Below are positions 2,295 through 47,757 of a stretch of 64,000 bases of DNA, one piece after another; the first letter of the stretch is position 1; the number at the start of each line of letters is the position of its first letter. The position numbers were made by a program, and so were the translations under genes. Source of the DNA: Candidatus Zhuqueibacterota bacterium (GTDB taxonomy: Bacteria > Zhuqueibacterota > Zhuqueibacteria > Thermofontimicrobiales > Thermofontimicrobiaceae); assembly GCA_034506395.1 (NCBI GenBank), contig JAPDPQ010000001.1, positions 4,435 through 68,434 on the forward strand. Reading direction: 5' to 3'. The notes beneath the pieces are model-generated. The model was not told the DNA's origin, ran no database searches, and saw only the letters and a program-made list of their open reading frames with translations.

Positions 2295-2870
2295 ATGGAT
2301 ATGGAATTGACAGAACAAGAATTGATCCGTCGTGCAAAGCAAGGAGATCGGGCAGCTCAGGCTAAAATTGTAAAAGACCATGAGAAAATGGTCTATAATT
2401 TGGGTCTAAAATTATTGGGCAACCCTGACCAAGCAGAGGGCGTTTTGCAAGAGACCTTCCTCAAGGTATTGCAAGCGCTTCCCAAATTCGAGGAAAAATC
2501 TCAGCTCTCGACTTGGATCTATCGCATCGCGACCAATCAGGCGCTCATGCGATTGCGTTCTCGCAAACGTCGTTTTATTTCAATTGAGGAAAATCCAGAA
2601 TTTGAGGATAAAGATTACACGACCTTCGCTCAATCGTTGGATGCAACCCCACTGGATGACGTGCTGAATCAGGAATTGCGAGAAAAGATGGATCGAGCGA
2701 TTGAGCAATTGCCAGATAATTATAAAACAGTGTTCGTGATGAAGGATATCGAAGGGATGGCATTGAAGGAAATTGCAGAAATTTTAGACCTGTCTTTGCC
2801 TGCAGTCAAATCCAATCTGCACCGCGCCAGAGTTACTCTTCGAAATAAATTGGCTGAAATGTGGAACTGA
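2295..2870 (+). CDS. RNA polymerase ECF-type sigma-70 factor
   Basis: Region-2 motifs (VYNLGLKLLGNPDQAEGVLQETFLKV...STWIYRIATNQALMRLR) and a region-4 helix-turn-helix (ALKEIAEILDLSLPAVKSNLHRAR). The start is taken at ATG 2295 (MDMELTEQ); the track ORF begins further upstream at 2223. Confidence 0.8.
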   Translation: MDMELTEQELIRRAKQGDRAAQAKIVKDHEKMVYNLGLKLLGNPDQAEGVLQETFLKVLQALPKFEEKSQLSTWIYRIATNQALMRLRSRKRRFISIEENPEFEDKDYTTFAQSLDATPLDDVLNQELREKMDRAIEQLPDNYKTVFVMKDIEGMALKEIAEILDLSLPAVKSNLHRARVTLRNKLAEMWN

Positions 2871-2880
2871 GGAATTTGCG

Positions 2881-3114
2881 ATGGAATGTTTTGAGTCTCT
2901 GGAAAAAATTTGTGAAGCGCTTGGAGAAGATATCGATAGCCCAATGTGCAAAGAGGTTGAGGAGCATTTGCGCAATTGCCCCCGCTGTTGCGCCCACGTC
3001 GATTCGGTCCGCAAGGTCGTTCGGCTTTATCGACAGATTGGCGATGCGGAGGTGCCTGTAGCCGTGGACGAACGATTGTGGAAAGTGCTCAATCTTTCAA
3101 AGCCACAAGACTGA
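2881..3114 (+). CDS. Anti-sigma factor, zinc-finger (zf-HC2/ChrR-like)
   Basis: 77 aa starting 10 nt after the sigma-factor stop; carries a HLRNCPRCCAH (H-x3-C-x2-C) motif typical of zinc anti-sigma factors. Confidence 0.65.
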   Translation: MECFESLEKICEALGEDIDSPMCKEVEEHLRNCPRCCAHVDSVRKVVRLYRQIGDAEVPVAVDERLWKVLNLSKPQD

Positions 3115-3368
3115 AGCTTGGCGCAAACCAGCTTCTATCTTTGAGCCCTACTGTTGCGCGCAGCAAATTATTATTATCCCACCGAACCAAACTAAATTCA
3201 TTTTCAAATGCAGTTCAGCCCTCGCTTCCGTTCTTTTGACCCTCCACATTTTGACTCGATCATTCGTCCGCCTTTATGCGCGGAATTACCTTTGGTGACT
3301 TTATATTCATGACTACAATAAGATCGATGCTTGGTGATGAGAAGATGGCAAAAGGCACGATTATTCGC

Positions 3369-3397
3369 TTGACAGATTGCCGATTATTTTGTATATT
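3369..3397 (+). promoter_or_regulatory. Sigma-70-like promoter candidate (TTGACA-N17-TATATT) upstream of the rpiB-deoC fusion gene
   Basis: Exact TTGACA at 3369-3374, a 17-nt spacer, then TATATT at 3392-3397; lies about 75 nt upstream of the start codon at 3470. Confidence 0.4.
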
Positions 3398-3469
3398 ACC
3401 GCCGTTTTTAAAATGCATCGCGCATGTGAGAGATCAACCATGTAACAAACGAGAAAGATTCGGAATCAG

Positions 3470-4876
3470 ATGAGCACCCAGCCGGGAATTAAAATCCGAA
3501 AAATTGCTATCGGCGCCGACCATGCGGGATTTGAGCTCAAGGAGAAGCTCAAAAAATATCTTGCTGATCGAGGGCATCATCTTTTTGATTGTGGAACTTT
3601 CAGCACCGAATCCGTGGATTATCCGAAGATCGCCTTTCAGGTTGCACAATTGGTGAGCAGAGGCGAATATGAATTGGGAATCATGATCGACGGTGCGGGG
3701 ATTGGTTCGGCGATGGCAGCCAATAAGGTCCCCGGTATTCGAGCGGCTCTCTGTTACGATCTTTCGACCGCACGCAATAGTCGCGAGCACAACAACGCCA
3801 ATGTCCTCACTCTGGGGGGTGGGCTGATCGGTTTTGAATTGGCCAAACAGATCGTCGATACCTGGCTGGCATCAGAGTGCACAGTCGATCGACACCTGCG
3901 CCGAGTACAGATGATCCATGACATCGAACAAGGAAAATTCACTGTGAATCAGATAACGATGCCTCCAGGTCCCTCATCTGGGTTGGCAATTTCCGAGGAA
4001 GACGTTAAGAAAATCGTTTCGAGAGTCCAAACTTTATTACAGCAGCAGATGGGAACTGGTGCGATGTGGACATCCGCTAGTTGTCAAAATCCCACATGCA
4101 ATTCGTGCGGCCAATGTGCGAATAAGGCCCCTGATGCCGTTCGTCAATTTATTTCCATTGGTGCTGCGCGCATCTCTAATGCTCCAGGTGGCATCGGTGC
4201 CCCGCAGGACATCGCCAAATTTATTGACCACACGCTGCTCAAGCCAGAAGCTACGATTTCGGATATCGAACGGGTTTGTCAGGAGGCAGTGAAATATCAA
4301 TTTGCAGCGGTGTGTATTAATCCCTGCTATGTGAAATTGGCGCATGAATTGACACGTGGATCCAATGTAAAAGTTTGTAGCGTGGTTGGGTTTCCGCTCG
4401 GGGCAAGCATCACCGAGATTAAAGCCCTGGAGGCTCGGCGAGCGATTCGCGACGGGGCGAAGGAGATCGATATGGTAATCAACATCGGTGCACTCAAAAG
4501 CGACAATGATGAATTGGTGTTTCGGGACATCCGGACTGTGGTGGATGCTTGTGTGGATGGAAGCGCAATCTGCAAGGTTATCATTGAAGCAGCGCTCTTG
4601 ACCGATGAAGAGAAAGTGAGGGCGTGCGAGCTGGCAAAGCGGGCGCGAGCCCATTATGTGAAAACGTCGACGGGATTCGGCCCCGGCGGTGCGACTGCGC
4701 ATGACGTCGCGCTGATGCGACAGGTGGTGAGCGGCACACGAATGGGCGTGAAGGCTGCGGGCGGCATCCGATCGCTGGCAGACGCACAAAAGATGATCGA
4801 AGCGGGGGCCACTCGGATCGGCGCCAGCGCTGGCGTGAAAATCGTCCAAGAAGCAGCAAAGGTGGCAAATCCCTGA
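3470..4876 (+). CDS. Bifunctional fusion: RpiB/LacAB-family sugar-phosphate isomerase (N-terminal) and deoxyribose-phosphate aldolase DeoC (C-terminal)
   Basis: The N-terminal ~150 aa match the RpiB fold ([14 protein letters not shown]...[25 protein letters not shown]...[13 protein letters not shown]). The C-terminal ~230 aa are DERA ([12 protein letters not shown]...[10 protein letters not shown]...[15 protein letters not shown]...[10 protein letters not shown]), including the Schiff-base lysine motif VKTSTGF. A ~80 aa linker contains a C-x4-C-x2-C-x2-C cluster. Confidence 0.85.
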
Positions 4877-5063
4877 TCGCCTCGGTCTCGTTCCCAACAC
4901 TTATCAGGTCACTATCGCTGCATCATCTTTTATTTTTTTATGCAAAAAATCGATGTTACATATAACTGAGAGCAAAACCGAACAAGATTAGTTATTGATG
5001 AGTCAGCCCATTTAAAATCCAAAATTCTAACAATGTTTTGAATTTGTTCACAAGGAGAGCTCT

Positions 5064-5693
5064 GTGGTTGACCTACGCGCTTATGTCTTTTTGGACAATC
5101 TTCAGCCGCAATACGCCGCCTTTTTGGGCACGGTGGCACAAGGGTTCCTGCCAATCGCCCACATGGCGTCGCTTTATGTCGAGATCTCCCCAGGGATCGA
5201 AATCAATCGTATCACGGATATCGCTTTGAAATCGACTCGGGTAACGCCGGGGATGCAAATTGTGGAACGCCTTTATGGTTTGCTTGAGATCCATTCTGAG
5301 TCTCAGGCGGACGTTCGGCAGGCTGGTCAGGCGATTTTGGACGCGTTGGGTTTAAAGGAAGAAGATCGCTGGAAGCCGAAGATTTACTCCAGCCAGGTGA
5401 TCCGACGAATTGATGACCATCAGACGCAATTGATTAATCGCATGCGCCACGGCAACATGATCATTCCGGGCCAGACATTGTATGTGATGGAAGTTGCCCC
5501 GGCAGCTTATGCCGCACTGGCAGCGAACGAAGCGGAAAAGGCCGCCGAAATTAATATCCTAGAGGTTCGAGCTTTTGGCAGTTTTGGACGCGTTTATCTG
5601 GGAGGAGAGGAACGCGATATCGACGTGGGGTGGCGCGCGGCTGTTCATGCCATTGAAAGCGTCACTGGCAAAATGTTTGAAGGAGCGTCTTAG
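5064..5693 (+). CDS. Divergent tandem BMC-domain shell protein, probably permuted BMC-T (EutL/PduB-like)
   Basis: 209 aa made of two ~100-aa halves. The second half ([30 protein letters not shown]...[24 protein letters not shown]) resembles BMC-domain and EutL patterns (..ADEATKQAMVEVV.. / ..[27 protein letters not shown]). It sits immediately upstream of the other shell genes. Assignment is by pattern recall only. Confidence 0.5.
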
Positions 5694-6062
5694 GTCGCTA
5701 TCCCTCTGCGCCAAAATATTTTATTGCTGATGCGTATCAACCCCATGGGCTTAAAGTTCTTCATCTTTCCATAATGAAAAAATAACGGACGCTTTTAAGG
5801 GAAGCTCATAAATTTTCCAACTTTTTTTCAGACTTCTGTGCAATGAGCCGATATCGATCAATCTCCTGTCACTGTTGAATAGGTAGGAGTCTATTTTATT
5901 TTAACAAGTCACAACTCAGGCATGCCCGCATTAACAGGCATGCCCCGATTTTGCAATTTATTTGAATTTTATGAAAGTCTCAGTTATTTAGTTAACAAGT
6001 TTAGGACAGCGCATTGACAAATTGGTTTAGAACATTTTACTGGTACTCAGGAGGAATGAAGC

Positions 6063-6383
6063 ATGGCCGAAGCTTTAGGAATGATTGAATGTCGTAGTTT
6101 TCCAGCAATGGTGGAAGCTGCAGATGCCATGGTTAAGGCTGCCAAGGTTGAGTTGGTCAGTTACGAGAAAACTGGGGGAGGATACGTCACTGCGATCATC
6201 CGTGGGGATGTTGCTGCGGTAAAGGCCGCTTGCGAAGCTGGACAAGCTGGTGCCGCCAAAGTGGGTGAGGTCGTTGCCGTGCATATTATCGCTCGGCCGC
6301 ACAGCAATGTGGACCTGGTATTGCCATTGGGCAGAAAGGAACAGGTAGCCGCAGAGCTGAAGAAAACCAAGCGCGATGAATAA
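6063..6383 (+). CDS. BMC shell protein, hexamer-forming BMC-H (PduA/EutM/CcmK family, Pfam00936)
   Basis: Canonical [54 protein letters not shown]...VHIIARPH; GGAGGAAT RBS 6 nt upstream. Confidence 0.92.
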
Positions 6384-6612
6384 TCAATAAAGGGCTGGAT
6401 AGAAGCCGCAAGTCAACGACGCTGCAAGTTGCTCTTGTTTGCTTTTAAAAATTTTTCAGCCAAGAGGCAAAACTATTTTTCCTTGCGTTAATAGCGGCTG
6501 AGAAAGAATTGAACTTCTGAAATAGCCCCTGATTCTGAATAGTTGGTAGCGAATAAGTTTGAAGCCATAAATTTGAGACAAATTGCTGCCAGAGTTATGA
6601 GCAGGAAAAGCT

Positions 6613-6912
6613 ATGGTATTAGCCAAAGTAATTGGGACCGTGGTCGCCACGCGAAAAGAAAAGAGCATGGAAGGGCTCAAATTCCTGCTTTTGCGACAGG
6701 TCGACCTCGATGGCAACGAGATTGGGGGTCATATCGTTGCTGCTGATGCTGTTGGTGCAGGTCTGGGCGAAATGGTGCTTTATGCCACTGGTAGCTCGGC
6801 TCGACAAACCGTAATGACTGATAAGCGGCCTTGCGATGCGGTCATTATGGCCATTGTGGATAACTGGGAAGTGAACGGACAGATCAAATACAAAAAAGGA
6901 CAACATGATTGA
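6613..6912 (+). CDS. BMC vertex protein BMC-P (EutN/CcmL/PduN family, Pfam03319), copy 1
   Basis: [17 protein letters not shown]...[32 protein letters not shown] is the classic EutN/CcmL pattern. Confidence 0.9.
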
Positions 6913-7027
6913 CCTGCTCCGCCGCCTAATATTTTCCATTAGCCGTGCAATGACAGATTGTTGAGATTTAAACTCCAATGAAACCGCAGGCTGATTTGGC
7001 ATTTAATGAAATAACAGGTAGCGCAAA

Positions 7028-7594
7028 TTGGATCGACCTTTTTTAATCGGCAAAAAGATCTATCTCCGACCAGTAGAGCCTGAGGATGCGGCATTTCTCG
7101 CTCGGGGGGAAAATCACCCAGCGGTGCGCGAGGCGTTATTTCTGGCATTCCCCGTGAGTATGGGAACTGAGCTGGAGAAGATCGAGCAATTCATCAAATC
7201 CAAAGAAGCAATTGTGCTGATCATTGTAGACCAGCAGACGAATCAACCAGTCGGCCAGACCGCATTCTTTCGCATCGATTTCGTCAGCCGAGCGGCCGTT
7301 TTTTATCTGGCAATCCTCGATCCGAGCCATTGGTCGAAGGGGTATGGCTCGGAGGCCACACAACTCATGGTTGATTACGCATTCGAGACGCTCAATCTCA
7401 ATCGCATCCAGCTTCATGTCTGCGCCGAAAATACCCCTGCCATTCGGATTTATGAGCGCGCTGGATTCAAAAAAGAGGGAGTTTTACGACAGGCTATGTT
7501 TCGCAACGGGGCTTATGTGGATTTCTGGGTGATGGGCATCTTGCGGAGCGATTGGTCGGTGCGATCTCAAAATAGCCAAGTCTTTTCGGCATAA
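7028..7594 (+). CDS. GNAT family N-acetyltransferase
   Basis: RimL/RimJ-like pattern (...QPVGQTAFFRIDF...WSKGYGSEATQLMVDYAFETLNLNRIQLHVCAENTPAIRIYERAGFKKEG); embedded between a BMC-P gene and the aldehyde dehydrogenase. Confidence 0.75.
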   Translation: MDRPFLIGKKIYLRPVEPEDAAFLARGENHPAVREALFLAFPVSMGTELEKIEQFIKSKEAIVLIIVDQQTNQPVGQTAFFRIDFVSRAAVFYLAILDPSHWSKGYGSEATQLMVDYAFETLNLNRIQLHVCAENTPAIRIYERAGFKKEGVLRQAMFRNGAYVDFWVMGILRSDWSVRSQNSQVFSA

Positions 7595-7741
7595 GCCAAT
7601 CAAATCCAGCCATAAATTCATCGACACAATAGGTATTTTTCGCCGGTGGTTGAATGATCTTAATAGTTGATTAGAGACTTTCGTTCACATACAACAATTA
7701 TTTGGTTTATCATGCGATCACTTTAACGCTGGAGCGAACCC

Positions 7742-9187
7742 TTGTCTTTCCTTGGTGAAAATCAGATCGAAACGATCGCCCAAAAAATTGTGGAGATCAT
7801 TATTGGCAAGAGCTCAGTGCCGGACGCGGGTATAAGGAGTAGCTCGGTCTTTCGTTCAGGCTGGTTGGGGATTTTCCCCACCATCGATGAAGCCGTGACC
7901 GCGACTTCGATCGCTCAGCGGCAATTGACCAGCATGACGCTCCGAAAGCGAGATGAGATCATCGCCAGTATCCGAGCCATGATGCTGGAACATGCGCGGG
8001 AGTTGGCCGAATTCGCCGTTGCAGAGACAGGGTTGGGCCGCGTCGAAGATAAGATTGCCAAAAATAAATTGGTGAGCGAGAAGACGCCTGGGACAGAAGA
8101 TCTCTATCCGATTGCCCGATCTGGAGACCACGGGCTAAGCTTGTTCGAGCCAGCGCCTTATGGCGTTATTGGCGCCATCACGCCAATTACCAACCCCACT
8201 TCTACGATCATCTGCAACACGATCGGAATGGTTGCAGCGGGCAACGGGGTGGTTTTCAACGTTCATCCTGGGGCAAAAAACACCTCAATCCAAAATATCC
8301 ATTTAATAAACCAGGCTATTATCCAAGCTGGTGGGCCCGTGAATTTGGTCAGTGGCATAACCGAGCCAACAATTGCAACGGCACAGCAATTGATGCGCCA
8401 TCCTGGGATACGAATTTTGGTCATCACAGGCGGAGGTGCTGTGGTCCGAGAAGCGATGAACAGTGGCAAGCGAGCCATTTGCGCTGGGCCCGGCAATCCA
8501 CCTGTGGTAGTTGATGAAACCGCTGATTTGGAGCGCGCTGGCGAGTTCATCGTGAAAGGCGCATCGTTCGACAATAACATCATCTGTGTGGATGAAAAGG
8601 AACTCATCGTGGTTGAGGCAGTGGCAGACCAATTGCTCAGGATCATGCAGAACAAAGGGGCGATCTTGCTAAAACCCCAGCTTCTCCCCCAGCTCGAGCA
8701 ATTATTGTTCGAGAAAACGAACGGGCCGGCCAAGCCAGGGATGATAAATAAAAGCTTGATCGGCAAAAATGCCAATTTGATCCTCTCGAAATTGGGGCTA
8801 TCGGTCGATGATCGGATTCGATTGGCCGTCATCGAGGTCGATCGCACCCATCCGCTGGTCTGGACCGAACAGATGATGCCAATTTTGCCGATGGTGCGGG
8901 TGGCGAATGCGGATGAGGCAATCGATTTGGCAAAACAGGTAGAAGGTGGAAATTATCATACTGCGGTTATGTATTCCCGAAATCTGGACAATCTCAGCCG
9001 GATGGCCCGGGAAATTAACACGACAATTTTTGTGAAAAACGGTCCCGCCTATGCTGGATTAGGATTTGGCGGCGAGGGATACACTTCTTTTTCTATCGCC
9101 AGCCCAACGGGAGAGGGCTTAACAGGTCCGCGCAGTTTCTCAAGAGAGCGGCGTTGCGTGTTGGTAGATCATTTTCGGATCGTTTAA
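7742..9187 (+). CDS. CoA-acylating aldehyde dehydrogenase (EutE/PduP family) with N-terminal encapsulation-peptide-like extension
   Basis: 481 aa, TTG start after GGAGCGAA. EutE/PduP-type motifs (...GNGVVFNVHPGAKNTS..., ...RAICAGPGNPPVVVDETAD..., ...SFDNNIICVDEKELIV...). The N-terminal ~20 aa (ENQIETIAQKIVEIIIGK) form an amphipathic helix typical of BMC encapsulation peptides. Confidence 0.9.
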   Translation: MSFLGENQIETIAQKIVEIIIGKSSVPDAGIRSSSVFRSGWLGIFPTIDEAVTATSIAQRQLTSMTLRKRDEIIASIRAMMLEHARELAEFAVAETGLGRVEDKIAKNKLVSEKTPGTEDLYPIARSGDHGLSLFEPAPYGVIGAITPITNPTSTIICNTIGMVAAGNGVVFNVHPGAKNTSIQNIHLINQAIIQAGGPVNLVSGITEPTIATAQQLMRHPGIRILVITGGGAVVREAMNSGKRAICAGPGNPPVVVDETADLERAGEFIVKGASFDNNIICVDEKELIVVEAVADQLLRIMQNKGAILLKPQLLPQLEQLLFEKTNGPAKPGMINKSLIGKNANLILSKLGLSVDDRIRLAVIEVDRTHPLVWTEQMMPILPMVRVANADEAIDLAKQVEGGNYHTAVMYSRNLDNLSRMAREINTTIFVKNGPAYAGLGFGGEGYTSFSIASPTGEGLTGPRSFSRERRCVLVDHFRIV

Positions 9188-9188
9188 T

Positions 9189-9812
9189 ATGAAACTATAC
9201 CCTGCAATTGCGCTGATCGAGTTTAGTAGCATTGCCACCGGAGTAATTGCTGGCGATGCGATGATCAAAAGAGCGCCGATTTCCATGTTAAAGGCTGGCA
9301 CGGTCAGCCGAGGAAAATATCTGGTGATGATTGCTGGTAGCACAGCAGCGGTCGAGGAATCTTATCGGGCTGGTCTAAGCGTCGGCGAAGCTGCGGTCAT
9401 CGATAAGGTTTTTCTGCCTGATGTGCATCCGCAGGTGCTCGACGCTATCCTTGGAGCAAGAAAAAAAATCAGCTCCGAGGCACTCGGGCTGATCGAAACC
9501 GCATCTATTGCCGCGACGATCGCCGCCGCTGATGCTGGCATCAAAGGGGCGATGGTCGATATCATCGAAATTCGGCTGGGCGACGCATTGGGCGGCAAGG
9601 CATTTGTGATGATGAACGGAACAGTCCACGACGTCACCGCTGCAGTTACCATTGGGCTGAAAGCGATCTCCAATGAAGCGCTTTGGCGCAATCATATCAT
9701 CATCCCATCGTTGCATCACGAAATGGCCCGTCAGATCGACCGTTCGAGCCGATTTGCCCTGGTAGAATATCAAAAATTAGCTGGAGACGAGAGCGAACAT
9801 GTTACTGGGTAA
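9189..9812 (+). CDS. Tandem BMC-domain shell protein BMC-T (PduT-like)
   Basis: Two canonical BMC domains (ALIEFSSIATGVIAGDAMIKRAPI... and LGLIETASIAATIAAADAGIKGAMVDIIEIRL...); starts 2 nt after the aldehyde dehydrogenase stop. Confidence 0.85.
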   Translation: MKLYPAIALIEFSSIATGVIAGDAMIKRAPISMLKAGTVSRGKYLVMIAGSTAAVEESYRAGLSVGEAAVIDKVFLPDVHPQVLDAILGARKKISSEALGLIETASIAATIAAADAGIKGAMVDIIEIRLGDALGGKAFVMMNGTVHDVTAAVTIGLKAISNEALWRNHIIIPSLHHEMARQIDRSSRFALVEYQKLAGDESEHVTG

Positions 9813-10089
9813 AGTGATCGGCACTGTTACGCCCTGCGTGGTTTACCCCGGACTCGAAGGCGTTCCGCTTCTGCTGGTTCAGCCGCTGAGTAAAAACTCC
9901 AAAGCGGTCGGCAAGCCCATTGTCGCCTGCGATGCCACCCGAATGGCTGGTCCAGGAGAACTGATCTATTACGAGGGCGGCCGCGAGGCAGCGCTGGCAT
10001 TAGATCCCTGGTTCGTCCCAGTGGATCACACCATCATTGGCATTGTGGATGGCGTCCATCTAATCGATGAAAGCTCTCAGTCCGAGTGA
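9799..10089 (+). CDS. BMC vertex protein BMC-P (EutN/CcmL family), copy 2
   Basis: MLLGKVIGTVTPCVVYPGLEGVPLLLVQPL...GKPIVACDATRMAGPGELIYYEGGREAA; overlaps the BMC-T stop by 14 nt, suggesting translational coupling. Confidence 0.85.
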   Translation: MLLGKVIGTVTPCVVYPGLEGVPLLLVQPLSKNSKAVGKPIVACDATRMAGPGELIYYEGGREAALALDPWFVPVDHTIIGIVDGVHLIDESSQSE

Positions 10090-10319
10090 AATTCAACTCT
10101 TTCAACCTCGCAGACAGCAAGTTCCTGCTGCAAAATGTCAAAAAGAGGCTATATTTTCACGCCGGCGAAGGCAGGTATCTCAACATTCGGTTGACCTAAC
10201 GATCAGTTTAGAAGGAGGTTCCTGTGCGCAAGCCAGCGGACAGAAATGAGAGGGCTCAACCATAGCGCTTTTTGCAACAGAAACTCGCTAGCTAATTTGT
10301 TAGAATTGGAGAAAAAGTT

Positions 10320-10592
10320 GTGATTATCGGCAAAGTCGCTGGAGAAATCTACTCCACGATCAACCACAGTTTCTATGATCAAAAAAAACTGCTGATCGTG
10401 GACAAATTGGACCTAACTGGAACGCCCACAGGCGACTATTTGATCGCAGTAGATTCCGTCGATGCTGGGCTCGGTGAAACGGTATTGGTCATTGATGAAG
10501 GCAATTCGGCCCGACAGGTAGTAAGCGATCCCAATGCGCCAATCCGCTCAATCATTATCGGGATCATCGATGCCGTGCGCATTGAGAGGTGA
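10320..10592 (+). CDS. BMC vertex protein BMC-P (EutN/CcmL family), copy 3
   Basis: GTG start preceded by GGAGAAAAAG; MIIGKVAGEIYSTINHSFYDQKKLLIVDKLDL...YLIAVDSVDAGLGETVLVIDEGNSAR. Confidence 0.8.
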   Translation: MIIGKVAGEIYSTINHSFYDQKKLLIVDKLDLTGTPTGDYLIAVDSVDAGLGETVLVIDEGNSARQVVSDPNAPIRSIIIGIIDAVRIER

Positions 10593-10840
10593 CTTCAATT
10601 CAAGAGCGAGATAGCAGCGTTCATCCTCCGTTCGCCGTTCCTTCGGTCCTCGCTCAAGCCAGTCGCTTCAGGTTGTCAAATTTATATCGATGCAAAGGAT
10701 GAAATATTTGACGAGCTCAAAGAGATTTGCTTTTACGATTTTGGGCCCTATTTGCATTCTTTCAGAAAAGCGTTATATTTAATTGATCGTTATTTAATCT
10801 TATTTCGAATTGCTAATCGAACCAAGCGTAGAAAGATTAT

Positions 10841-11527
10841 ATGGCGAATGAATGGCAATTGCGACGGGAGATCGTCGCGATTGGCAAAAAGGCTTACGAA
10901 CGCGGGCTGGTGACGGCCACAGATGGGAATATCAGCGTGCGAGTCATGGGAGATCGTTTTCTGATCACACCGAGCGGCAGTTGCCTCGGAGAATTGGCAC
11001 CCGAACAATTGGTTTATGTCGATTTTGAAGGCAAGACATTATCTGGCGGTAAGCCAACTGGAGAGCTGGCCATGCACCTGGCTGCTTATCGAGAGCGGCC
11101 AGACATCCATGCCGTCTTGCATGCACACCCACCAATTACCACGGGCTTTACCATCGCTGGCGAATCACTGGCGCAATGCGTCATCCCCGAGGTTGTGGTG
11201 ATCTTCGGGACCATCCCTACTACGGAATATGCCACTATTTCAACTGAAGAGGGTGCCAAAGTCATTCGGGAATTGATCCGCGACCATGATGCTTTGATAT
11301 TGGATCGGCATGGGACAATTACAGTGGGAAAAACCCTCATCGACGCATATCGCAAACTCGAGAAGGTCGAATATGCCGCCCAGGTCACCCTGGTTGCCAA
11401 ACAATTGGGCAAAGTGAAAACCTTATCGCGTGAACAAATTCAAAAATTGGAAGCCGTCAGGCAAAAATATGGCTATCAGGGCCGAAAATCGCTATGCGAG
11501 GCATGTGGCCTCTGCAATATTTCATGA
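10841..11527 (+). CDS. Class II aldolase/adducin-domain protein (L-fuculose-/L-ribulose-phosphate aldolase-like) with C-terminal extension
   Basis: LVTATDGNISVRV...FLITPSG...GKPTGELAMHLAAYRERPDIHAVLHAHPP...LDRHGTITVGKTLIDAYRKLEKVEYAAQ. The last ~30 aa (TLSREQIQKLEAVRQKYG...CEACGLCNIS) extend beyond the ~200-aa aldolase fold. Confidence 0.85.
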   Translation: MANEWQLRREIVAIGKKAYERGLVTATDGNISVRVMGDRFLITPSGSCLGELAPEQLVYVDFEGKTLSGGKPTGELAMHLAAYRERPDIHAVLHAHPPITTGFTIAGESLAQCVIPEVVVIFGTIPTTEYATISTEEGAKVIRELIRDHDALILDRHGTITVGKTLIDAYRKLEKVEYAAQVTLVAKQLGKVKTLSREQIQKLEAVRQKYGYQGRKSLCEACGLCNIS

Positions 11528-11694
11528 AATCAGTCAGCGCTGACGACTTCATCCAATTGAATTAAAGCATCGACAAATTGCCGTGATCGCCAATTGCGCG
11601 AATTGACCCAATTAACCCAATTTTGCTATTCGCCAAATTAGCTTTATTCGTTTGAATTCGCTGTTTTATTCTATATCCCATCGCGCCAATCCAG

Positions 11695-12588
11695 ATGAAG
11701 GAGAACAAATTTTTGACTGCAAATCAGCAAGAACCGATCCAATCCACATACGACTGTATCCCCTGTGCTATCGGGAGCCTGATCACTCTATTTAAAAAAG
11801 GACTGGTTTCAGAAAGGGATCAGGAAATCGCCATGCGAGCATTATTGCGTTATCTCAGCACCATTGATTTCCATCAATCCCCTCCCCAAATCGGTCAACA
11901 GATGCAACGGATCATTCGACACGTGCTCAATAATCCTGATCCGTATTTAGAAATCAAACAGCAATTCAATCGCTTGCTTCTCGATCATTACGTTGAATTA
12001 AAAGCATGGGTGGACCAGGCGGCAGATCCATTTCAGATGGCATTGCGATTGTCCATCGCTGGAAACGTGATCGATTTCGGTCCGAATCAACGCTTTGATG
12101 TCCACCAAACATTGGAACGGGCAAAGACTATTGTCCTGGCGATCGATGATTCAGAGCCTTTGCGCCAGGCCATCTCGAAAGCAACGCTACTTCTCTATTT
12201 GGGAGATAATGCTGGCGAAATCGTGTTGGATCGTATTTTCCTGGAAACGATTAACCATCCCAATGTCTATTTTGCTGTTCGCAGTGCGCCCATCATCAAT
12301 GACGCATTGCTGGAAGACGCAATCATGGTAGGAATCGACAAAATTGCCCATGTCATCACCAATGGGGATGATGCGCCTGGGACAATCTTAGAGAACACCT
12401 CAGCCCAATTTAAGACAATTTTTGACCAAGCGGATCTGATCATTTCAAAAGGCCAGGGCAATTATGAGGGTCTTAGCTGCGTTGATAAAAATATCTTCTT
12501 TTTGCTAATGACCAAATGCGAGCATGTCGCTAATCATCTTGGAGTAAAAAAAGGTGATTTTGTGGTGAAACAAGGACAAGGTTGTTGA
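11695..12588 (+). CDS. DUF89 family protein (ARMT1-like damage-control/sugar-phosphate phosphatase)
   Basis: 297 aa; pattern ...LLYLGDNAGEIVLDRIF...ISKGQGNYEGLS... recalls the DUF89 metal-dependent phosphatase family. Recognition from memory, moderate. Confidence 0.55.
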   Translation: MKENKFLTANQQEPIQSTYDCIPCAIGSLITLFKKGLVSERDQEIAMRALLRYLSTIDFHQSPPQIGQQMQRIIRHVLNNPDPYLEIKQQFNRLLLDHYVELKAWVDQAADPFQMALRLSIAGNVIDFGPNQRFDVHQTLERAKTIVLAIDDSEPLRQAISKATLLLYLGDNAGEIVLDRIFLETINHPNVYFAVRSAPIINDALLEDAIMVGIDKIAHVITNGDDAPGTILENTSAQFKTIFDQADLIISKGQGNYEGLSCVDKNIFFLLMTKCEHVANHLGVKKGDFVVKQGQGC

Positions 12589-12795
12589 GTTAAACTGTGT
12601 TAAAATTCTTGATGATCATTGCATGAGGGTTCTACAATTGAATCCATTCGAATTTTGCTCGTCGCTGCTAAAAAAGTTTAGGAATCCGTTTTGTCTCATT
12701 CATCGATGTACGCATTGATTTTATTCATAAATTAACAGATGAGCTGTTGAAAATAGCTTTTTGTATTTTGCAGAAATTCCTCAAATGTACAAGCA

Positions 12796-13623
12796 ATGGA
12801 GAAACCCATGTATCCAGTTCTTTTTAGATTTGGTGCCTTTGAGCTCCGCAGCTACGGTCTCGCTCTGGCGCTGAGCGTGGCGCTGGGAATTTGGATTTCT
12901 TTGAAGCGAGCGCCTCGCTATGGAGTCAAAAAAGAAACGATTCTCGATCTGGCTGTGATCATTATGCTGGCAGCGATCATTGGCAGTCGATTCTGGTATG
13001 TGATCTATCATATTGATGAATTTCGCGGGCATTGGTTCGATACCATCAACCCGTTTCAGGGTGGCACGATCGGGATTGCTGGTTTATCCATGGTCGGCGG
13101 GGTGGTTTTGGCAATTCTTTCGGCGCTGGTCTACGCGATGGTCAAGAAATTGGACTTTCTGAAGTTGGGCGATACCATCGCCCCAGTTTTTTTACTTGGC
13201 GAAGGGATCGTCCGCGCTGGTGGCTGCTTTCTGAACGGCTGTTGTTTCGGTCGCCCTACCGATAGCCCGCTGGGCATTGTTTTTCCTCCAGAGGGCGTGG
13301 CTGGTTCGCTGTTCCCTCACACGCATCTTTGGCCTGCCCAACTGTTCGCCTCTGCATTGGGTTTCATTGGATTTGCCCTCGCCCTCTGGCTTGATCGAAA
13401 ATCCAAATTCAAAGGATTTACCTTTTGGCTGGTGTTCGGGTATTATGCAATCGATCGGTTCATCGTAGATCAATTTCGCTATTATGAATCACCTCAAGTA
13501 TTAGCCACATTAGGGCCGATCACTTTTAACGCGAATCATTTGTTGCTGGCCGGATTGTTTATTTTCAGCGTCTTTTTCTTCATTCGAGGCTGGCGCCAGC
13601 AGCAGAGGTCAGAGAGAAAATAG
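12796..13623 (+). CDS. lgt: Prolipoprotein diacylglyceryl transferase
   Basis: Multi-pass membrane protein with the Lgt signature (...LRSYGLALALSVALGIW... and GGCFLNGCCFGRPTDSPLGIVFP). Confidence 0.85.
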   Translation: MEKPMYPVLFRFGAFELRSYGLALALSVALGIWISLKRAPRYGVKKETILDLAVIIMLAAIIGSRFWYVIYHIDEFRGHWFDTINPFQGGTIGIAGLSMVGGVVLAILSALVYAMVKKLDFLKLGDTIAPVFLLGEGIVRAGGCFLNGCCFGRPTDSPLGIVFPPEGVAGSLFPHTHLWPAQLFASALGFIGFALALWLDRKSKFKGFTFWLVFGYYAIDRFIVDQFRYYESPQVLATLGPITFNANHLLLAGLFIFSVFFFIRGWRQQQRSERK

Positions 13624-36933: not shown

Positions 36934-38229
36934 TTAGTGAATGGAGCCCAATATCAATCTTGGGACCTGACATGGTGCTTCATCAATTTCAATTGCCGAT
37001 CGTAAAGCGTGTTCAATTTGCTCAGCATTCATCACTTTTGAGTGATAGATTTCAGCCAAAGGCTCACCGCGTTCCACGCGATCACCGACTTTATGGCACA
37101 AAACGATCCCCGCGGTGGGATCAATGGGATCTCCAATTTTTGCCCGACCAGCGCCGAGTTCCATGGACAACAAGCCGATCTTCAGCGCATTTATCTCGTG
37201 AACATAACCTGATTTGGTGCTGAGCACGGTTTCATGATATTGGCTGAAGGGATATCGAGCAGGATTTTCAACGACTGAAATATCACCTCCCTGGGCAGTT
37301 ACCATCTCAATAAATTTATTATAGGCAGCTCCATTGGCTAATAAAAATTGCAATTGATCAGAATGATGAATTGGCTTTCCCGCCAATCGCAGCATCTCTG
37401 CCGTGAGCGCCAAAGTAATTTCAACTAAGTCATTTGGGCCACCACCATGCAATGTATCAATTGCTTCTTTAACCTCCAGCCAATTCCCAACCGCATAACC
37501 TAAAGGCTGATCCATGGCCGTCATCATGGCCGTAGTGGGCAGGCCGAAGCTTTTTGCAATCGAGATGAATGTCTCGGCTAATTGGTTCGCTCGGTCAAAT
37601 GAGCTAAAAAATGCTCCACGACCAGTTTTAACATCCAACACCAGGGCCTTTGCACCTTCTGCGATCTTTTTGCTCAATATGCTGGCAACAACTAAAGGGA
37701 TCGATGGCACAGTTCCTGTGCGATCGCGTAACGCATAAATCTTTTTGTCCGCCGGGACAATCTCATCGGTTTGCCCAATCATGGCAAGGCCGATTTTTTC
37801 AACTTGTTGAACGAACTCTGTCAAGCTCAACTGGGTTCGAAAGCCGGGGATCGATTCTAATTTGTCCAATGTCCCACCAGAATGGCCCAATCCACGACCA
37901 GACATCATGGGAACTGCTACCCCTGCCGCGGCGGCCAATGGGGCCAAGACCAATGACACCTTATCACCGACCCCTCCAGTGCTGTGCTTATCGACAGGCA
38001 TCCGATCTAAATGGCTGAAGTCTACCGTCCGGCCCGATTGAACCATGAGCTTGGTCAATGCTTGAGTCTCTTCTATGCTCATGCCCTGAAAATAAATGGC
38101 CATCAATAAAGCGGCCATTTGGTAGTCTGGGACCAAACCAGCGACATAGCCATCGATTATTGATTTCAACTCTGCCTCTGAAAGGTGAGATCCGTCTCGC
38201 TTTTTCACAATCAATTGTTCAATATTCAT
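36934..38229 (-). CDS. Thymidine/pyrimidine-nucleoside phosphorylase
   Basis: MNIEQLIVKKRDG..LS..ELK.II.GY..G...DYQMAALLMAIYF.GM...E..ALT.LM..SG...D...VDKHSTGGVGDKVSL; C-terminal domain ...LGAGR..IGD.IDP.AGI.L.KVGD.V..GEPLA.I.. Start taken at internal MNIEQ. Confidence 0.9.
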   Translation of the reverse strand: MNIEQLIVKKRDGSHLSEAELKSIIDGYVAGLVPDYQMAALLMAIYFQGMSIEETQALTKLMVQSGRTVDFSHLDRMPVDKHSTGGVGDKVSLVLAPLAAAAGVAVPMMSGRGLGHSGGTLDKLESIPGFRTQLSLTEFVQQVEKIGLAMIGQTDEIVPADKKIYALRDRTGTVPSIPLVVASILSKKIAEGAKALVLDVKTGRGAFFSSFDRANQLAETFISIAKSFGLPTTAMMTAMDQPLGYAVGNWLEVKEAIDTLHGGGPNDLVEITLALTAEMLRLAGKPIHHSDQLQFLLANGAAYNKFIEMVTAQGGDISVVENPARYPFSQYHETVLSTKSGYVHEINALKIGLLSMELGAGRAKIGDPIDPTAGIVLCHKVGDRVERGEPLAEIYHSKVMNAEQIEHALRSAIEIDEAPCQVPRLILGSIH

Positions 38230-38319
38230 CGTTCCTCTTCCTTTTTCCAAAAAACAAAGAAGCAATCAAACAACGATTGCTTCTTTAATTTTGTTTTCAT
38301 TCTATAGCTCTATTTCGTG

Positions 38320-46752: not shown

Positions 46753-47757
46753 TTAGATCATGTTTAGGGTTTTGAGGAGAAAGATGCCCAAGGAGATAGT
46801 AATGATCGATCCAAGGGTGGTCATGACGATGATGTTGCCGGCCAATTCGCTATTGCAGCCCATTGCTTCCGCCATAACAAAGCTGACGATGGCGGAGGGG
46901 GTGGCGAACAAGAGAAATACCACCCCCAGGTCCTGACCAGAAAGACCCAATCGAAAGCCCAGCACTGCGATGGTTGCAGGGATAATGACGATTTTCAAAA
47001 TGGTAGCGACCGCCGCCAATCGCGCATCTTTTTTGATTTGCTCAAAATCCAATGAACCGCCGATCCCGAGCAGCGCCAGGGGCAATGTAATAGCCGCCAG
47101 GCTATTGATGGTTGTGATCAAAAACTGAGGTAACTCGATGTCGAAATACGAAAATGGCAGGGCGATGATGGTCGCAAGGATAAGTGGGTTGGTGAAAATT
47201 TCGGACAACATCTGCTGGAGCGTCAACTGTTTGTCGGCCCGGATCGGTACCGTCAATGCGATGATTGCCAGAATGTTATAGAGTGGCATGACGAACGCCA
47301 ACAAAATGGCCGCCTTACTCAGCGCTGCCGGACCAAACATGTTAGCGATCAGGGCAAAACCGATAATTGCAAAATTGCTGCGAAAACTGCCTTGAATAAA
47401 TGAAGCGCGATCCCGACCATTATTTGACAACCCCAGAGAGATCAGCCAGCTCAATGCAAAAAAAAAGAGCACACTGAGATAAACAAACAGGATCAGCTTT
47501 AGGCTGAAAGTCATTTTCAAATCGGTGCGCGAAAGGCTCTCGAATACCAGTGCTGGGGCGGCAACGGTGAACACGATTTTCGAAGAGATGCTCACAAAAT
47601 TGCCATTGATTAACCCCTTTTTCTTCAATCCATATCCCAAAAAAATAATCAAGAATACCGGGGCCACCCCATTGAATGAGAAAATCAGATTTTGCATCGA
47701 AGGTTCTCTATTTCTCTCAAGGATTTTCATCGCGACAGATCGGTTGAAAATCCTCAT
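46753..47757 (-). CDS. AEC (auxin efflux carrier) family transporter
   Basis: About 10 transmembrane segments arranged as two repeats; N-terminus MQNLIFSFNGVAPVFLIIFLGYGLKK typical of AEC/malate-permease proteins. Confidence 0.65.
   Translation of the reverse strand: MRIFNRSVAMKILERNREPSMQNLIFSFNGVAPVFLIIFLGYGLKKKGLINGNFVSISSKIVFTVAAPALVFESLSRTDLKMTFSLKLILFVYLSVLFFFALSWLISLGLSNNGRDRASFIQGSFRSNFAIIGFALIANMFGPAALSKAAILLAFVMPLYNILAIIALTVPIRADKQLTLQQMLSEIFTNPLILATIIALPFSYFDIELPQFLITTINSLAAITLPLALLGIGGSLDFEQIKKDARLAAVATILKIVIIPATIAVLGFRLGLSGQDLGVVFLLFATPSAIVSFVMAEAMGCNSELAGNIIVMTTLGSIITISLGIFLLKTLNMI

Follow-up and report, generated by a model that had tools for sequence, protein, structure and literature searches.

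Microcompartment loci of the SPU class have been in catalogues since 2014, and more than 280 were known by 2021. One subtype, SPU3, has 31 loci in the catalogue of Sutter et al. 2021, among them that of candidate division KSB1 bacterium 4572_119 (B6I21_04925/04930). SPU3 as catalogued already covers KSB1 genomes, and it also covers RpiB-DERA fusions, which appear in the literature from 2014 and again in 2021 and 2024. SPU6 of Chloroflexi is the only SPU type with reported enzymology, for DERA and RPI (Dwyer, Sutter and Kerfeld 2024, PMC11585597). The SPU6 DERA was purified, with a Km of 0.104 (unit omitted here) for deoxyribose-5-phosphate, a DERA-RPI complex was shown, and the RPI was nearly inactive on ribose-5-phosphate. 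The statement in the first-pass annotation of our locus, that no member of the class had been characterised biochemically, is therefore outdated.

The window analysed here is a stretch of 64,000 nucleotides. Within it lies an intact operon that very probably encodes an SPU3-type bacterial microcompartment of a candidate division KSB1 bacterium, with breakdown of deoxyribose-5-phosphate its most likely role. The genes first listed for the locus are all present, at the coordinates given, as intact + strand ORFs, each backed by profile searches. That list was incomplete, since it passed over a GNAT gene in the middle of the operon. The cassette, and the parts of its signature enzyme, are as follows.

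3470–4876, + strand: RpiB-DERA fusion, the signature enzyme (profile matches, AlphaFold2 model)
3500–3928, + strand: RPI domain of the fusion
3995–4048, + strand: amphipathic helix of the fusion, encapsulation-peptide-like (hydrophobic moment 0.64)
4082–4117, + strand: Cys4 motif in the fusion linker
4205–4867, + strand: DERA barrel of the fusion
5064–5693, + strand: BMC-Tdp (double-permuted, stacking trimer) of the CcmP type, gating residues E68/R69
6063–6383, + strand: BMC-H hexamer protein (PF00936, 5e-29)
6613–6912, + strand: BMC-P pentamer paralogue 1 (PF03319, 4e-29)
7028–7594, + strand: GNAT N-acetyltransferase, SpeG-like (Acetyltransf_3, 3e-21)
7742–9187, + strand: CoA-acylating aldehyde dehydrogenase (PduP/EutE family), catalytic Cys282
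9189–9812, + strand: BMC-Ts (tandem, PduT-like), Ser40 instead of the pore cysteine (two PF00936 domains)
9799–10089, + strand: BMC-P pentamer paralogue 2 (PF03319, 5.5e-18; positional orthologues 52–77% identical)
10320–10592, + strand: BMC-P pentamer paralogue 3 (PF03319, 8e-24; positional orthologues 44–70% identical)
10841–11527, + strand: class II aldolase (FucA-family, DHAP-type), Cys3 tail CEACGLC at 11495–11515 (PF00596, 8e-50)

Judged from sequence, the subtype is SPU3: the locus has every testable feature by which the Sutter 2021 supplement defines it, the assignment being a match of features rather than catalogue HMM clustering. Like catalogued SPU3 loci, the cassette combines an aldehyde dehydrogenase with PF02502 and PF01791 domains, fused with PF02502 N-terminal. 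It has one BMC-H, a BMC-P triplet, a CcmP-like Tdp, a Ts without the pore cysteine, and no PduS. Positions of the encapsulation peptides also agree, as does the gene order of fused Marinimicrobia, Lentisphaerae and Verrucomicrobia loci. The order fusion-Tdp-H-P1-aldehyde dehydrogenase-Ts-P2-P3 is kept in Neomarinimicrobiota, Lentisphaerae, Verrucomicrobiota and Chloroflexi, and a KSB1 homologue, B6I21_04930 (67% identical), adjoins a Tdp typed as SPU3 in the catalogue. The window's KSB1 sub-clade differs in adding the SpeG-like GNAT, the class II aldolase 3' of BMC-P3 and the Cys4 linker, none of which is in the catalogue's SPU3 description.

The fusion carries both expected halves. Its N-terminal part matches PF02502 (2.4e-54, aa 12–149) and TIGR01120 rpiB (164.4 bits, cut-off 138.65). 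The C-terminal half had been proposed to be a DERA-family aldolase, and it matches PF01791 (6.6e-19, aa 250–460) and, with 280.9 bits, passes the TIGR00126 deoC cut-off of 117. Residue mapping places D334/K398/K428 at E. coli D102/K167/K201. The AlphaFold2 model contains both domains and a helix at 176–193. Comparison with SPU6 (Dwyer 2024) shows that both DERAs have a helical extension at the N-terminus and the conserved D/K/K residues, that both RPIs have Asp for Cys66, and that DERA and RPI associate in both, covalently in the window. Conversely, SPU6 has RPI and DERA as separate proteins, its aldehyde dehydrogenase is of a different clade with the encapsulation peptide at the C-terminus, and its Tdp is from another major clade.

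Could the RpiB-type half be an active isomerase? If so, it would work on a sugar phosphate other than ribose-5-phosphate, and another pentose or deoxypentose phosphate would be isomerised before cleavage. Across 76 homologues the DERA residues D334/K398/K428 are invariant, as are RPI residues D17, H18, H107, R141 and R145 (E. coli D9, H10, H99, R133 and R137), with D74 at least 90% conserved. The RPI pattern suggests that selection maintains an intact sugar-phosphate site. Promiscuity is common among RpiB enzymes (Axen 2014), and Dwyer 2024 leaves the possibility open. However, D74 stands where the catalytic cysteine, C66, is expected, and Ala replaces Thr68. According to Dwyer 2024, the Cys66-to-Asp change is common to all SPU RPIs and ribose-5-phosphate was converted little or not at all by the SPU6 RPI. 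Furthermore, RPI products are not linked to DERA by any pathway, and SPU5 loci lack RPI altogether. We consider an active isomerase unlikely.

The shell set is also as first described, with BMC and EutN domains within 5064–10592 (PF00936, PF03319) and one permuted and one tandem BMC-T. Note that the 5064–5693 product scores only 24.2 bits against PF00936 (cut-off 24.5), and it is the NCBIfam CcmP profile that identifies it (343.7 bits, cut-off 340). This Tdp aligns over its full length, gate residues included, with the beta-carboxysome CcmP of Synechococcus elongatus (5LSR/4HT5, 1.3e-84; IVERLYG opposite FIERLYG). The element common to the two is probably passage of a sugar phosphate or cofactor through a gated pore. 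The Tdp also matches structures 5V74 and 5V76 from the HO microcompartment of Haliangium ochraceum (~1e-70), but the main HO loci lack DERA and RPI. BMC-H has the standard interface motifs, KAAK at aa 25 and RPH at aa 78, and a KTGGG pore region. BMC-Ts aligns with 3NWG (1.4e-38), with TVSRGKY opposite PVCPGKY. BMC-P1 shares 60–76% identity with its positional orthologues in SPU3 loci of the fusion type from other phyla, and 49–54% in more divergent loci, compared with only 37–38% to P2 and P3 of the window.

The aldehyde dehydrogenase scores 658.6 bits against PRK15398 (cut-off 403). It aligns with the microcompartment enzyme 5JFL (5e-136), FDNNIICVDEKE lying opposite FDNNLPCVAEKE, and the catalytic cysteine is conserved. 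The N-terminal helix (nt 7760–7801) resembles an encapsulation peptide, being amphipathic with a hydrophobic moment of 0.63 at aa 7–20. The TTG start is kept in five loci. An SPU metabolosome centred on DERA, which yields acetaldehyde for use by the CoA-acylating aldehyde dehydrogenase, had been proposed, and the locus agrees in every testable respect. To call it a complete metabolosome kit was an overstatement, since cofactor-recycling enzymes are missing: Pfam scans of the window's large ORFs (at least 120 aa beyond 17 kb) found no PduL/Pta phosphotransacylase, alcohol dehydrogenase or PduS.

The Tdp score above the NCBIfam CcmP cut-off might be taken to indicate a carboxysome relative. Alternatively, the locus might be a decaying, non-functional remnant, a reading that the closely related genome L083 (CP070762.1), with its operon cut off after a GNAT fragment, could favour. 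Both are very improbable. RuBisCO, CcmM/N and carbonic anhydrase are absent from the same Pfam scans of large ORFs (at least 120 aa beyond 17 kb), and a CcmP-like Tdp belongs to the SPU3 definition. All 11 cassette ORFs are intact, their catalytic residues are conserved, and a second, independent assembly carries an identical locus.

The GNAT and the class II aldolase are clade-specific additions to this SPU3 operon. The best solved relatives of the GNAT are spermidine N1-acetyltransferases (2e-20). It occupies the same gap between BMC-P1 and the aldehyde dehydrogenase in L082, L089, L090 and L091; L083 has a truncated copy, and L084 and all distant loci have none. The class II aldolase is the last cassette gene in eight loci (including L082, L084, L086, L088, L089, L090 and L091). 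In this sub-clade its CxxCGxC tail and the Cys4 linker motif of the fusion always co-occur. The aldolase keeps the metal ligands and catalytic Glu of FucA (E75, H94, H96, H157), and its specificity residues differ. No substrate was assigned because no NCBIfam equivalog cut-off was reached.

A second signature enzyme is conceivable. Here, the aldolase would also cleave a ketose-1-phosphate, such as 5-deoxyribulose-1-phosphate, fuculose-1-phosphate or a related deoxy sugar phosphate, to DHAP and an aldehyde for the same aldehyde dehydrogenase. This would widen the substrate range and so extend the main model. The retained FucA site includes a phosphate pocket, the enzyme is about equally close to OtnC-like, DrdA/FucA-like and FucA structures, and its place at the end of the cassette is fixed. 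A canonical encapsulation helix at the C-terminus of longer relatives marks the aldolase family as cargo, and PF00596 aldolases are signature enzymes of PVM, SPU-like and SPU5 loci. Conversely, the window's aldolase stops at its Cys tail with no such helix, the locus has no kinase or isomerase for making a ketose-1-phosphate, the missing equivalog match counts against it, and most SPU3 loci do without a class II aldolase. We regard the proposal as possible but doubtful. The likeness to Planctomycete-type loci noted in the first-pass annotation goes no further than the PF00596 aldolase. PVM and PVM-like loci of Planctomycetes and Verrucomicrobia encode such an aldolase and an aldehyde dehydrogenase beside shell genes, but there the aldolase is the signature enzyme and DERA and RPI are missing, whereas in the window it is accessory, and both the shell proteins and the enzymes are of the SPU3 kind.

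The flanks of the cassette contain the following features.

2223–2870, + strand: ECF-type sigma factor (Sigma70_r2 and Sigma70_r4_2 domains)
2881–3114, + strand: 77-aa ORF, possible anti-sigma factor (weak zf-HC2 match, E=0.008)
3369–3397, + strand: predicted sigma-70-type promoter of the operon, TTGACA-17-TATATT (11/12 consensus matches)
11695–12588, + strand: DUF89/ARMT1 damage-control phosphatase (PF01937, 4e-63)

The locus had been drawn from 2295, but its first 1.2 kb (2295–3469) hold no microcompartment genes, only the sigma factor, the small ORF and the promoter. In this clade the ECF sigma factor is a conserved upstream neighbour. An ORF of 77–83 aa lies 3' of the sigma gene in L082, L089, L090 and L091, and with OsmC the two form a trio (OsmC-ECF-77aa) 5' of the cassette in L082, L089 and L090. 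The trio of L091 is separated from the cassette by a mutase, a PyNP and two minus-strand genes, and the sigma factor is missing from the KSB1 locus L084. The promoter sequence, CTTGACA...TTTTGTATATT, is invariant across six loci, in intergenic DNA otherwise only 47% conserved. These include L084 and L091, whose upstream genes differ. At the other end, the DUF89 phosphatase gene is present as annotated, but it is not a conserved operon member, being missing from L084, L090 and L091. The closest relatives, L082 and L089, are the only other loci that have it, and there a methyltransferase gene intervenes between aldolase and phosphatase. The phosphatase gene is probably a neighbour and not part of the operon.

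Two further genes of the window may connect the operon with nucleosides.

36934–38265, - strand: pyrimidine-nucleoside phosphorylase, PyNP (TIGR02644, 548 bits)
38320–39681, - strand: PGM/PMM-family phospho-sugar mutase (four PGM_PMM domains)

PyNP is a probable upstream feeder, converting deoxynucleosides to deoxyribose-1-phosphate. The mutase is a candidate phosphopentomutase, for deoxyribose-1-phosphate to deoxyribose-5-phosphate, and may instead be GlmM. Its best NCBIfam match is archaeal-type GlmM (558 bits); solved relatives include 9IX8, a phosphopentomutase of the PGM family, besides generic phospho-sugar mutases. In the window this pair (36.9–39.7 kb) is ~25 kb from the cassette. In L091 the mutase-PyNP pair is ~3 kb upstream, and a PyNP homologue lies within 1–2 kb of the cassette in L016, L033 and L044. 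Directly 3' of the L016 cassette are a DeoB-type mutase, PyNP, PNP and cytidine deaminase. We conclude that genes for a nucleoside phosphorylase and a phospho-sugar mutase stood beside the operon ancestrally.

DERA and nucleoside phosphorylases are reversible enzymes. The system could, on general enzymology, run from acetaldehyde and glyceraldehyde-3-phosphate to deoxyribose-5-phosphate for deoxynucleoside synthesis. This is highly improbable: characterised metabolosomes are all catabolic, the aldehyde dehydrogenase family and the logic of encapsulation suit aldehyde removal, and the related loci carry catabolic deo-type genes, cytidine deaminase included.

In the catabolic model that we prefer, the operon would be transcribed from its own conserved promoter. 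Deoxynucleosides from scavenged DNA would be phosphorolysed by PyNP, and the mutase would supply 2-deoxyribose-5-phosphate. The sugar phosphate would enter a shell of BMC-H, PduT-like BMC-Ts, gated CcmP-like BMC-Tdp and three BMC-P proteins. There, the DERA half, its catalytic residues intact, is predicted to release glyceraldehyde-3-phosphate and acetaldehyde, an activity shown only for the SPU6 homologue. The encapsulated PduP/EutE-type dehydrogenase would, as its family suggests, convert acetaldehyde to acetyl-CoA and NADH. With neither a phosphotransacylase nor an alcohol dehydrogenase or PduS among the genes, the shell would have to let acetyl-CoA, CoA and NAD(H) through, for which the large gated BMC-Tdp pore is the most plausible route. 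Following Dwyer 2024, the RpiB half is most likely a scaffold, and the internal amphipathic helix would act as encapsulation peptide for cargo assembly. The RpiB-type domain, the DHAP-type aldolase and the GNAT stand outside this model, and leave room for other substrates.

The organelle type had been catalogued, and characterised in part, before this analysis, which makes the locus a good example rather than a discovery. What it adds to the description of the family is a conserved promoter, the ancestral adjacency of nucleoside genes, and the pairing of the Cys4 and CxxCGxC motifs.

ORF calling and profile searches of the window resolved 14 consecutive forward-strand ORFs at 2.2-12.6 kb. The genes are listed below with their supporting matches.

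Genes of the microcompartment locus and its immediate surroundings
2223-2870, forward: ECF sigma factor (Sigma70_r2 and r4_2)
2881-3114, forward: 77-aa ORF (weak zf-HC2, E=0.008)
3470-4876, forward: RpiB-DeoC fusion (PF02502, 2.4e-54; TIGR00126 deoC, 280.9 bits against a cut-off of 117)
5064-5693, forward: 209-aa shell protein (PF00936, 24.2 bits against a cut-off of 24.5; NCBIfam CcmP, 343.7 bits)
6063-6383, forward: BMC-H shell protein (PF00936, 5e-29)
6613-6912, forward: BMC-P shell protein, P1 (PF03319, 4e-29)
7028-7594, forward: GNAT acetyltransferase (Acetyltransf_3, 3e-21)
7742-9187, forward: PduP/EutE-type aldehyde dehydrogenase, AldDH (PRK15398, 658.6 bits)
9189-9812, forward: two-domain BMC-T shell protein (PduT-like)
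9799-10089, forward: BMC-P shell protein, P2 (PF03319, 5.5e-18)
10320-10592, forward: BMC-P shell protein, P3 (PF03319, 8e-24)
10841-11527, forward: class II aldolase (PF00596, 8e-50)
11695-12588, forward: DUF89/ARMT1 phosphatase (PF01937, 4e-63)
12796-13623, forward: Lgt, housekeeping (PF01790, 3.5e-45)

[quoted passage not shown] Profile searches bear out all of these. Its gene list overlooked the GNAT acetyltransferase (7028-7594), and the start given for the locus, position 2295, falls inside the sigma factor gene and outside the microcompartment genes. The window locus is also present, and identical, on an independent Logan assembly. The H+-pyrophosphatase and IMP dehydrogenase encoded in the window show no difference from proteins of metagenome-assembled genomes that NCBI lists as 'candidate division KSB1 bacterium'.

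Loci of the sugar-phosphate-utilizing (SPU) class, encoding a DeoC-like aldolase, RpiB and an aldehyde dehydrogenase, were defined by Axen et al. 2014, with the fusion noted in Marinimicrobia. The class was later found to have >280 loci, in 26 phyla, and seven subtypes (Sutter et al. 2021). One subtype, SPU3, is represented by 31 loci in the supplement of Sutter et al. 2021, candidate division KSB1 included. SPU3 enzymes are an aldehyde dehydrogenase, PF01791 and PF02502; the latter two are fused in 12 of the 31 loci, with PF02502 N-terminal (Sutter et al. 2021). For the 2024 curation, Dwyer 2024 (PMC11585597) gives 20 SPU3 loci with fused PF02502-PF01791. Encapsulation peptides are found at the AldDH N-terminus and between the fused domains, and the shell comprises one standard BMC-H, a BMC-P triplet, a CcmP-like BMC-Tdp, and a BMC-Ts without PduS or the pore cysteine (Sutter et al. 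2021). Every SPU3 item that could be tested was matched by the window locus: the PF02502-N-terminal fusion, an internal encapsulation-peptide-like sequence, the BMC-P triplet, Tdp, Ts and BMC-H. Furthermore, B6I21_04930, a 67% identical homologue, adjoins B6I21_04925, a Tdp protein that is typed SPU3 in the catalogue. We conclude that, by its predicted enzyme, encapsulation-peptide and shell features, this is an SPU3 locus. The earlier assignment to an SPU metabolosome was thus correct, and is refined here. Its claim of novelty has to be withdrawn: SPU was defined in 2014, enzymology of DERA and its RpiB-type partner (RPI) from the SPU6 subtype followed in 2024, and the locus belongs to a known, partly characterised kind. 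It is an already-catalogued type with a few lineage-specific additions. The KSB1 literature that we found does not discuss microcompartments.

Both signature domains of the fusion can be compared with known enzymes. By alignment, D334, K398 and K428 of the DERA half correspond to D102, K167 and K201 of E. coli DeoC, and all three are invariant in 76 homologues. At D102/K167/K201 the aligned DeoC sequence agrees with the numbering of Dwyer 2024. In the RPI domain, D9, H10, H99 (=H107), R133 and R137 of E. coli RpiB are kept, and are invariant in the 76-sequence alignment. Conversely, the catalytic Cys66 is replaced by Asp74 (at least 90% conserved in the 76 sequences) and Thr68 by Ala76. Note that Dwyer 2024 (PMC11585597) describes the Cys66-to-Asp change in all SPU RPIs, with little or no ribose-5-phosphate activity. 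The same study reports SPU6 DERA to be active on deoxyribose-5-phosphate, and to form a roughly 1:1 complex with a nearly inactive RPI.

The AlphaFold2 model of the fusion has a mean pLDDT of 83.7, with confident domains at residues 11-153 and 246-466. Between the two lie a helix at 176-193 (pLDDT about 70) and a stretch of low confidence. With a hydrophobic moment of 0.64, against a background 95th percentile of 0.53, this helix is strongly amphipathic, and it is a putative encapsulation peptide forming a DERA-specific extension. Residues 7-20 of AldDH form an encapsulation-peptide-like amphipathic helix with a moment of 0.63, also above the 95th percentile (0.53). AldDH matches the microcompartment enzyme 5JFL (5e-136), conserves the catalytic Cys282, and has a TTG start codon that is conserved in relatives.

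The shell genes (one for BMC-H, two for BMC-T and three for BMC-P) fit into 5.5 kb and are clustered with the enzymes. The 209-aa BMC-Tdp aligns over its full length with CcmP structures (1.3e-84) and keeps the Glu-Arg gate (E68/R69). BMC-Ts has TVSRGKY where 3NWG has PVCPGKY, with serine in place of the Fe-S-binding pore cysteine of PduT-type proteins. Motifs of BMC-H are standard (KAAK at residue 25 and RPH at residue 78). The three BMC-P proteins share 31-38% identity with each other and mostly 44-77% with positional orthologues from complete SPU loci of other phyla. Judged by these identities, the paralogues are evidently old duplicates.

Two other microcompartment types share individual components with the locus. 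In beta-carboxysomes CcmP occurs beside RuBisCO, CcmM/CcmN and carbonic anhydrase, whereas the window locus shares a CcmP-like protein alone. Pfam scans of the window's large ORFs (at least 120 aa beyond 17 kb) detected no RuBisCO, CcmM/CcmN or carbonic anhydrase. Because these genes are missing from the scanned ORFs, a carboxysome reading of the CcmP match is rejected. Similarly, the first-pass annotation had seen a resemblance to the Planctomycete (PVM) type. In PVM and PVM-like loci, a class II aldolase is the sole signature enzyme, and there is no DERA or RPI. The window locus has both, and its aldolase is accessory, being missing from most loci with the shared cassette (the genes from the fusion to P3). 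For these reasons, the PVM reading is also rejected.

The contents of this SPU3 locus outline a pathway. [quoted passage not shown] AldDH, again by homology, would convert acetaldehyde to acetyl-CoA. Cofactors and acetyl-CoA would cross the shell, plausibly via the gated Tdp pore; exchange by this route is proposed by Dwyer 2024 (PMC11585597). The locus had been described as a complete metabolosome kit. This was too generous: the Pfam scans of the large ORFs (at least 120 aa beyond 17 kb) returned none of PF06130, Pta, PF00465 or PduS. Since neither a phosphotransacylase, an alcohol dehydrogenase nor PduS was found there, cofactors and acetyl-CoA would have to exchange across the shell. The lack of phosphotransacylase and alcohol dehydrogenase is shared with SPU2, SPU3 and SPU5, for which an 'incomplete core' is typical.

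Comparison with other loci strengthens the case that the substrate derives from nucleosides. In L016, a metagenome-assembled Lentisphaerae locus, genes for a DeoB-type mutase (PF01676), pyrimidine nucleoside phosphorylase (PyNP), purine nucleoside phosphorylase (PNP) and cytidine deaminase come directly after the cassette, on its strand (9564-13323). In effect, the microcompartment has a deo-like operon joined to it. A phosphorylase also lies no more than 2 kb from the cassette in two Chloroflexi loci (L033 and L044). In L091, a close relative of the window locus, genes for a PGM-family mutase and PyNP (4183-6868) lie between sigma genes and the cassette, ~3 kb upstream. Downstream of the L091 cassette the order is Prs-L25-Pth-S6-SSB-S18-L9. 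Every one of these L091 flanking families, except Pth and S18, recurs at 25.8-39.7 kb of the window, including the following adjoining pair.

Candidate feeder genes elsewhere in the window
36934-38265, reverse: pyrimidine-nucleoside phosphorylase, adjoining the mutase gene
38320-39681, reverse: PGM-family phospho-sugar mutase (best NCBIfam match, archaeal-type GlmM)

Hence, the window appears to carry the L091 neighbourhood in altered order. Because it holds this L091-type neighbourhood, the phosphorylase and mutase are likely feeders of the deoxyribose-5-phosphate route. Note that GlmM and phosphopentomutase are inseparable by sequence for the window mutase, which scores best as archaeal-type GlmM. 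Its pairing with PyNP, together with the L091 arrangement, suggests both an ancestral link to the cassette and a phosphopentomutase role.

We compared the locus with its relatives more widely. The homologue search returned thousands of RpiB-DERA homologues. Groups represented among the matches listed in a genome scan include Neomarinimicrobiota, Calditrichia, Planctomycetes, Lentisphaerae, Verrucomicrobiota, Woeseiaceae, Acidobacteriota, Chloroflexi and others; the closest relatives came from exact-protein look-ups. The cassette order, fusion (or RPI plus DERA)-Tdp-H-P1-AldDH-Ts-P2-P3, is the same in at least 30 of 80 loci. In four close relatives (L082, L089, L090 and L091) the fusion is 67-86% identical to that of the window. 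All four have the GNAT gene between P1 and AldDH, a class II aldolase gene after P3, and an upstream trio of OsmC, ECF sigma factor and small ORF. In L083, the GNAT gene is truncated. The KSB1 loci L084 and L085 have the aldolase, and lack GNAT and the sigma factor; an 83-aa ORF stands in the GNAT position in L084. The DUF89 phosphatase, counted earlier as part of the kit, is found downstream in just two relatives, L082 and L089, with a methyltransferase gene in between, and is therefore treated as a neighbour.

Some relatives depart from the common layout. Toxin-antitoxin-type genes (NTP_transf_2/HepT-like and RelB-like) are inserted between the fusion and Tdp in L084/L085 (11415-12549), L090 (11453-11641) and L083 (11523-11738); the window has a 187-nt spacer there. 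In L083 (CP070762.1, a 5.2-Mb genome; 10001-14215) the operon breaks off with a 119-aa fragment of GNAT, beyond which unrelated genes lie on the other strand. This locus is either disrupted or split. For many RPI and DERA pairs, most of them acidobacterial, no shell genes occur within the sequence covered (up to 10 kb on each side, with some contigs of 3-6 kb). These include L018-L028, L034, L036, L039, L041-L042, L045, L049-L056, L059-L060, L062 and others. Either the signature enzymes occupy satellite positions, or the pair is also used outside microcompartments.

Upstream of the fusion is a near-consensus sigma-70 promoter, TTGACA-17-TATATT (3369-3397), 72 nt 5' of the start codon. The block CTTGACA-N17-TTTTGTATATT (window 3360-3397) is invariant in six loci, with poorly conserved intergenic flanks. 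The six include L084 and L091, in which the upstream genes differ. Because the block is invariant despite this, the operon is predicted to have its own housekeeping-type promoter, with no tie to the ECF sigma factor. Control by the latter is unsupported: the promoter is sigma-70-like and also occurs in loci without the sigma gene. A second promoter-like site (7684-7713), upstream of AldDH, lacks conservation among relatives and was rejected as an internal promoter. The operon contains unusually long non-coding spacers of 229-369 nt (5694-6062, 6384-6612, 10090-10319 and 10593-10840) with no Rfam match. Across the whole window, an Rfam scan at gathering thresholds found one tRNA only, and no riboswitch or leader in the locus.

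The class II aldolase could be a second aldehyde-producing enzyme, and so either a rival to, or an extension of, the DERA-based pathway. It keeps the FucA metal ligands (H94, H96 and H157), the catalytic Glu75 and the phosphate pocket, all in favour of such activity; residues of the aldehyde site differ. The protein scores below every NCBIfam equivalog cut-off. Its solved relatives are all about 30% identical, and it is approximately equidistant from OtnC-like, DrdA/FucA-like and FucA structures. For the GNAT protein, the nearest solved relatives are spermidine/diamine N-acetyltransferases (2e-20; SpeG-like). Acetyl-CoA is both the GNAT co-substrate and the compartment product.

Matching cysteine motifs occur in the aldolase and the fusion. 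The fusion linker has a four-cysteine motif (residues 205-216; nt 4082-4117), between the internal encapsulation helix and the DERA barrel, that recurs in 71 of the 120 closest homologues and in all 46 with at least 64% identity. Its pattern is Cx4(or x2)CxxCxxC, with a core that is usually CxxCGxC. The aldolase ends in LCEACGLC (Cys 219, 222 and 225; window 11495-11515), and CxxC(G/R)xC occurs within the final 80 residues in 79 of the 120 homologues closest to it. Thirty-one longer forms continue beyond the motif with a linker and then a canonical C-terminal encapsulation helix, such as VDERVVDVVVEEVLRVL. The window's aldolase has no encapsulation helix. The two motifs go together. All eight non-redundant cassettes with a Cys-tailed aldolase have the four-cysteine linker, and paired motifs are present in the window, L082, L084/85, L086, L088, L089, L090 and L091. 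This extends to the divergent loci, with linkers CDPCSGCGQC in L086 and CGELVCGLCADC in L088. Shell-linked loci that lack the aldolase, of which there are more than 30, do not have the four-cysteine linker, with L038 and the truncated L083 as the only exceptions.

Shared ancestry could explain this co-occurrence. The CxxCGxC core resembles a ferredoxin-type Fe-S motif. When the Cys-rich linker and the aldolase tails were searched on their own against Pfam at E<=10, no Fe-S or zinc-finger family rose above noise, and AlphaFold2 pLDDT is <50 over the Cys4 segment of the fusion. In the literature that we searched, there is no mention of the paired motifs. It is conceivable, though on balance rather unlikely, that these undescribed motifs bind Fe-S or zinc, in a centre that would tether the helix-less aldolase to the fusion or serve redox or oxygen sensing in the lumen. 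Either role, if true, would represent a new metal-dependent way to organise cargo, or to achieve redox coupling, within a metabolosome, here of a subtype (SPU3) without PduS.

Elsewhere, the window encodes a 787-aa glycyl radical enzyme (49225-51588, forward; PFL-like, 805 bits, plus a Gly_radical domain) with neither shell genes beside it nor an obvious activase. Genes for URO-D-like and membrane transporter proteins (46753-48833) lie just upstream, on the opposite strand. A 1510-aa protein (52917-57449, reverse) has an S8 subtilase as its only recognised domain, the remainder being without a Pfam match.

SPU microcompartments are among the most widespread types, and are thought to support many uncultured bacteria on DNA debris. 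The window locus leaves this picture unchanged. What it does define is the promoter and boundaries of a KSB1 operon, together with an SPU3 sub-clade, of KSB1 and relatives, that has extra parts: a SpeG-like GNAT, a DHAP-type aldolase and paired cysteine motifs. The natural RpiB-DERA fusion and compact shell gene set would be convenient for heterologous reconstitution. Finally, SPU3 cassettes from several phyla have genes for nucleoside phosphorylase and mutase as neighbours, providing comparative support for a route from nucleosides to deoxyribose-5-phosphate.
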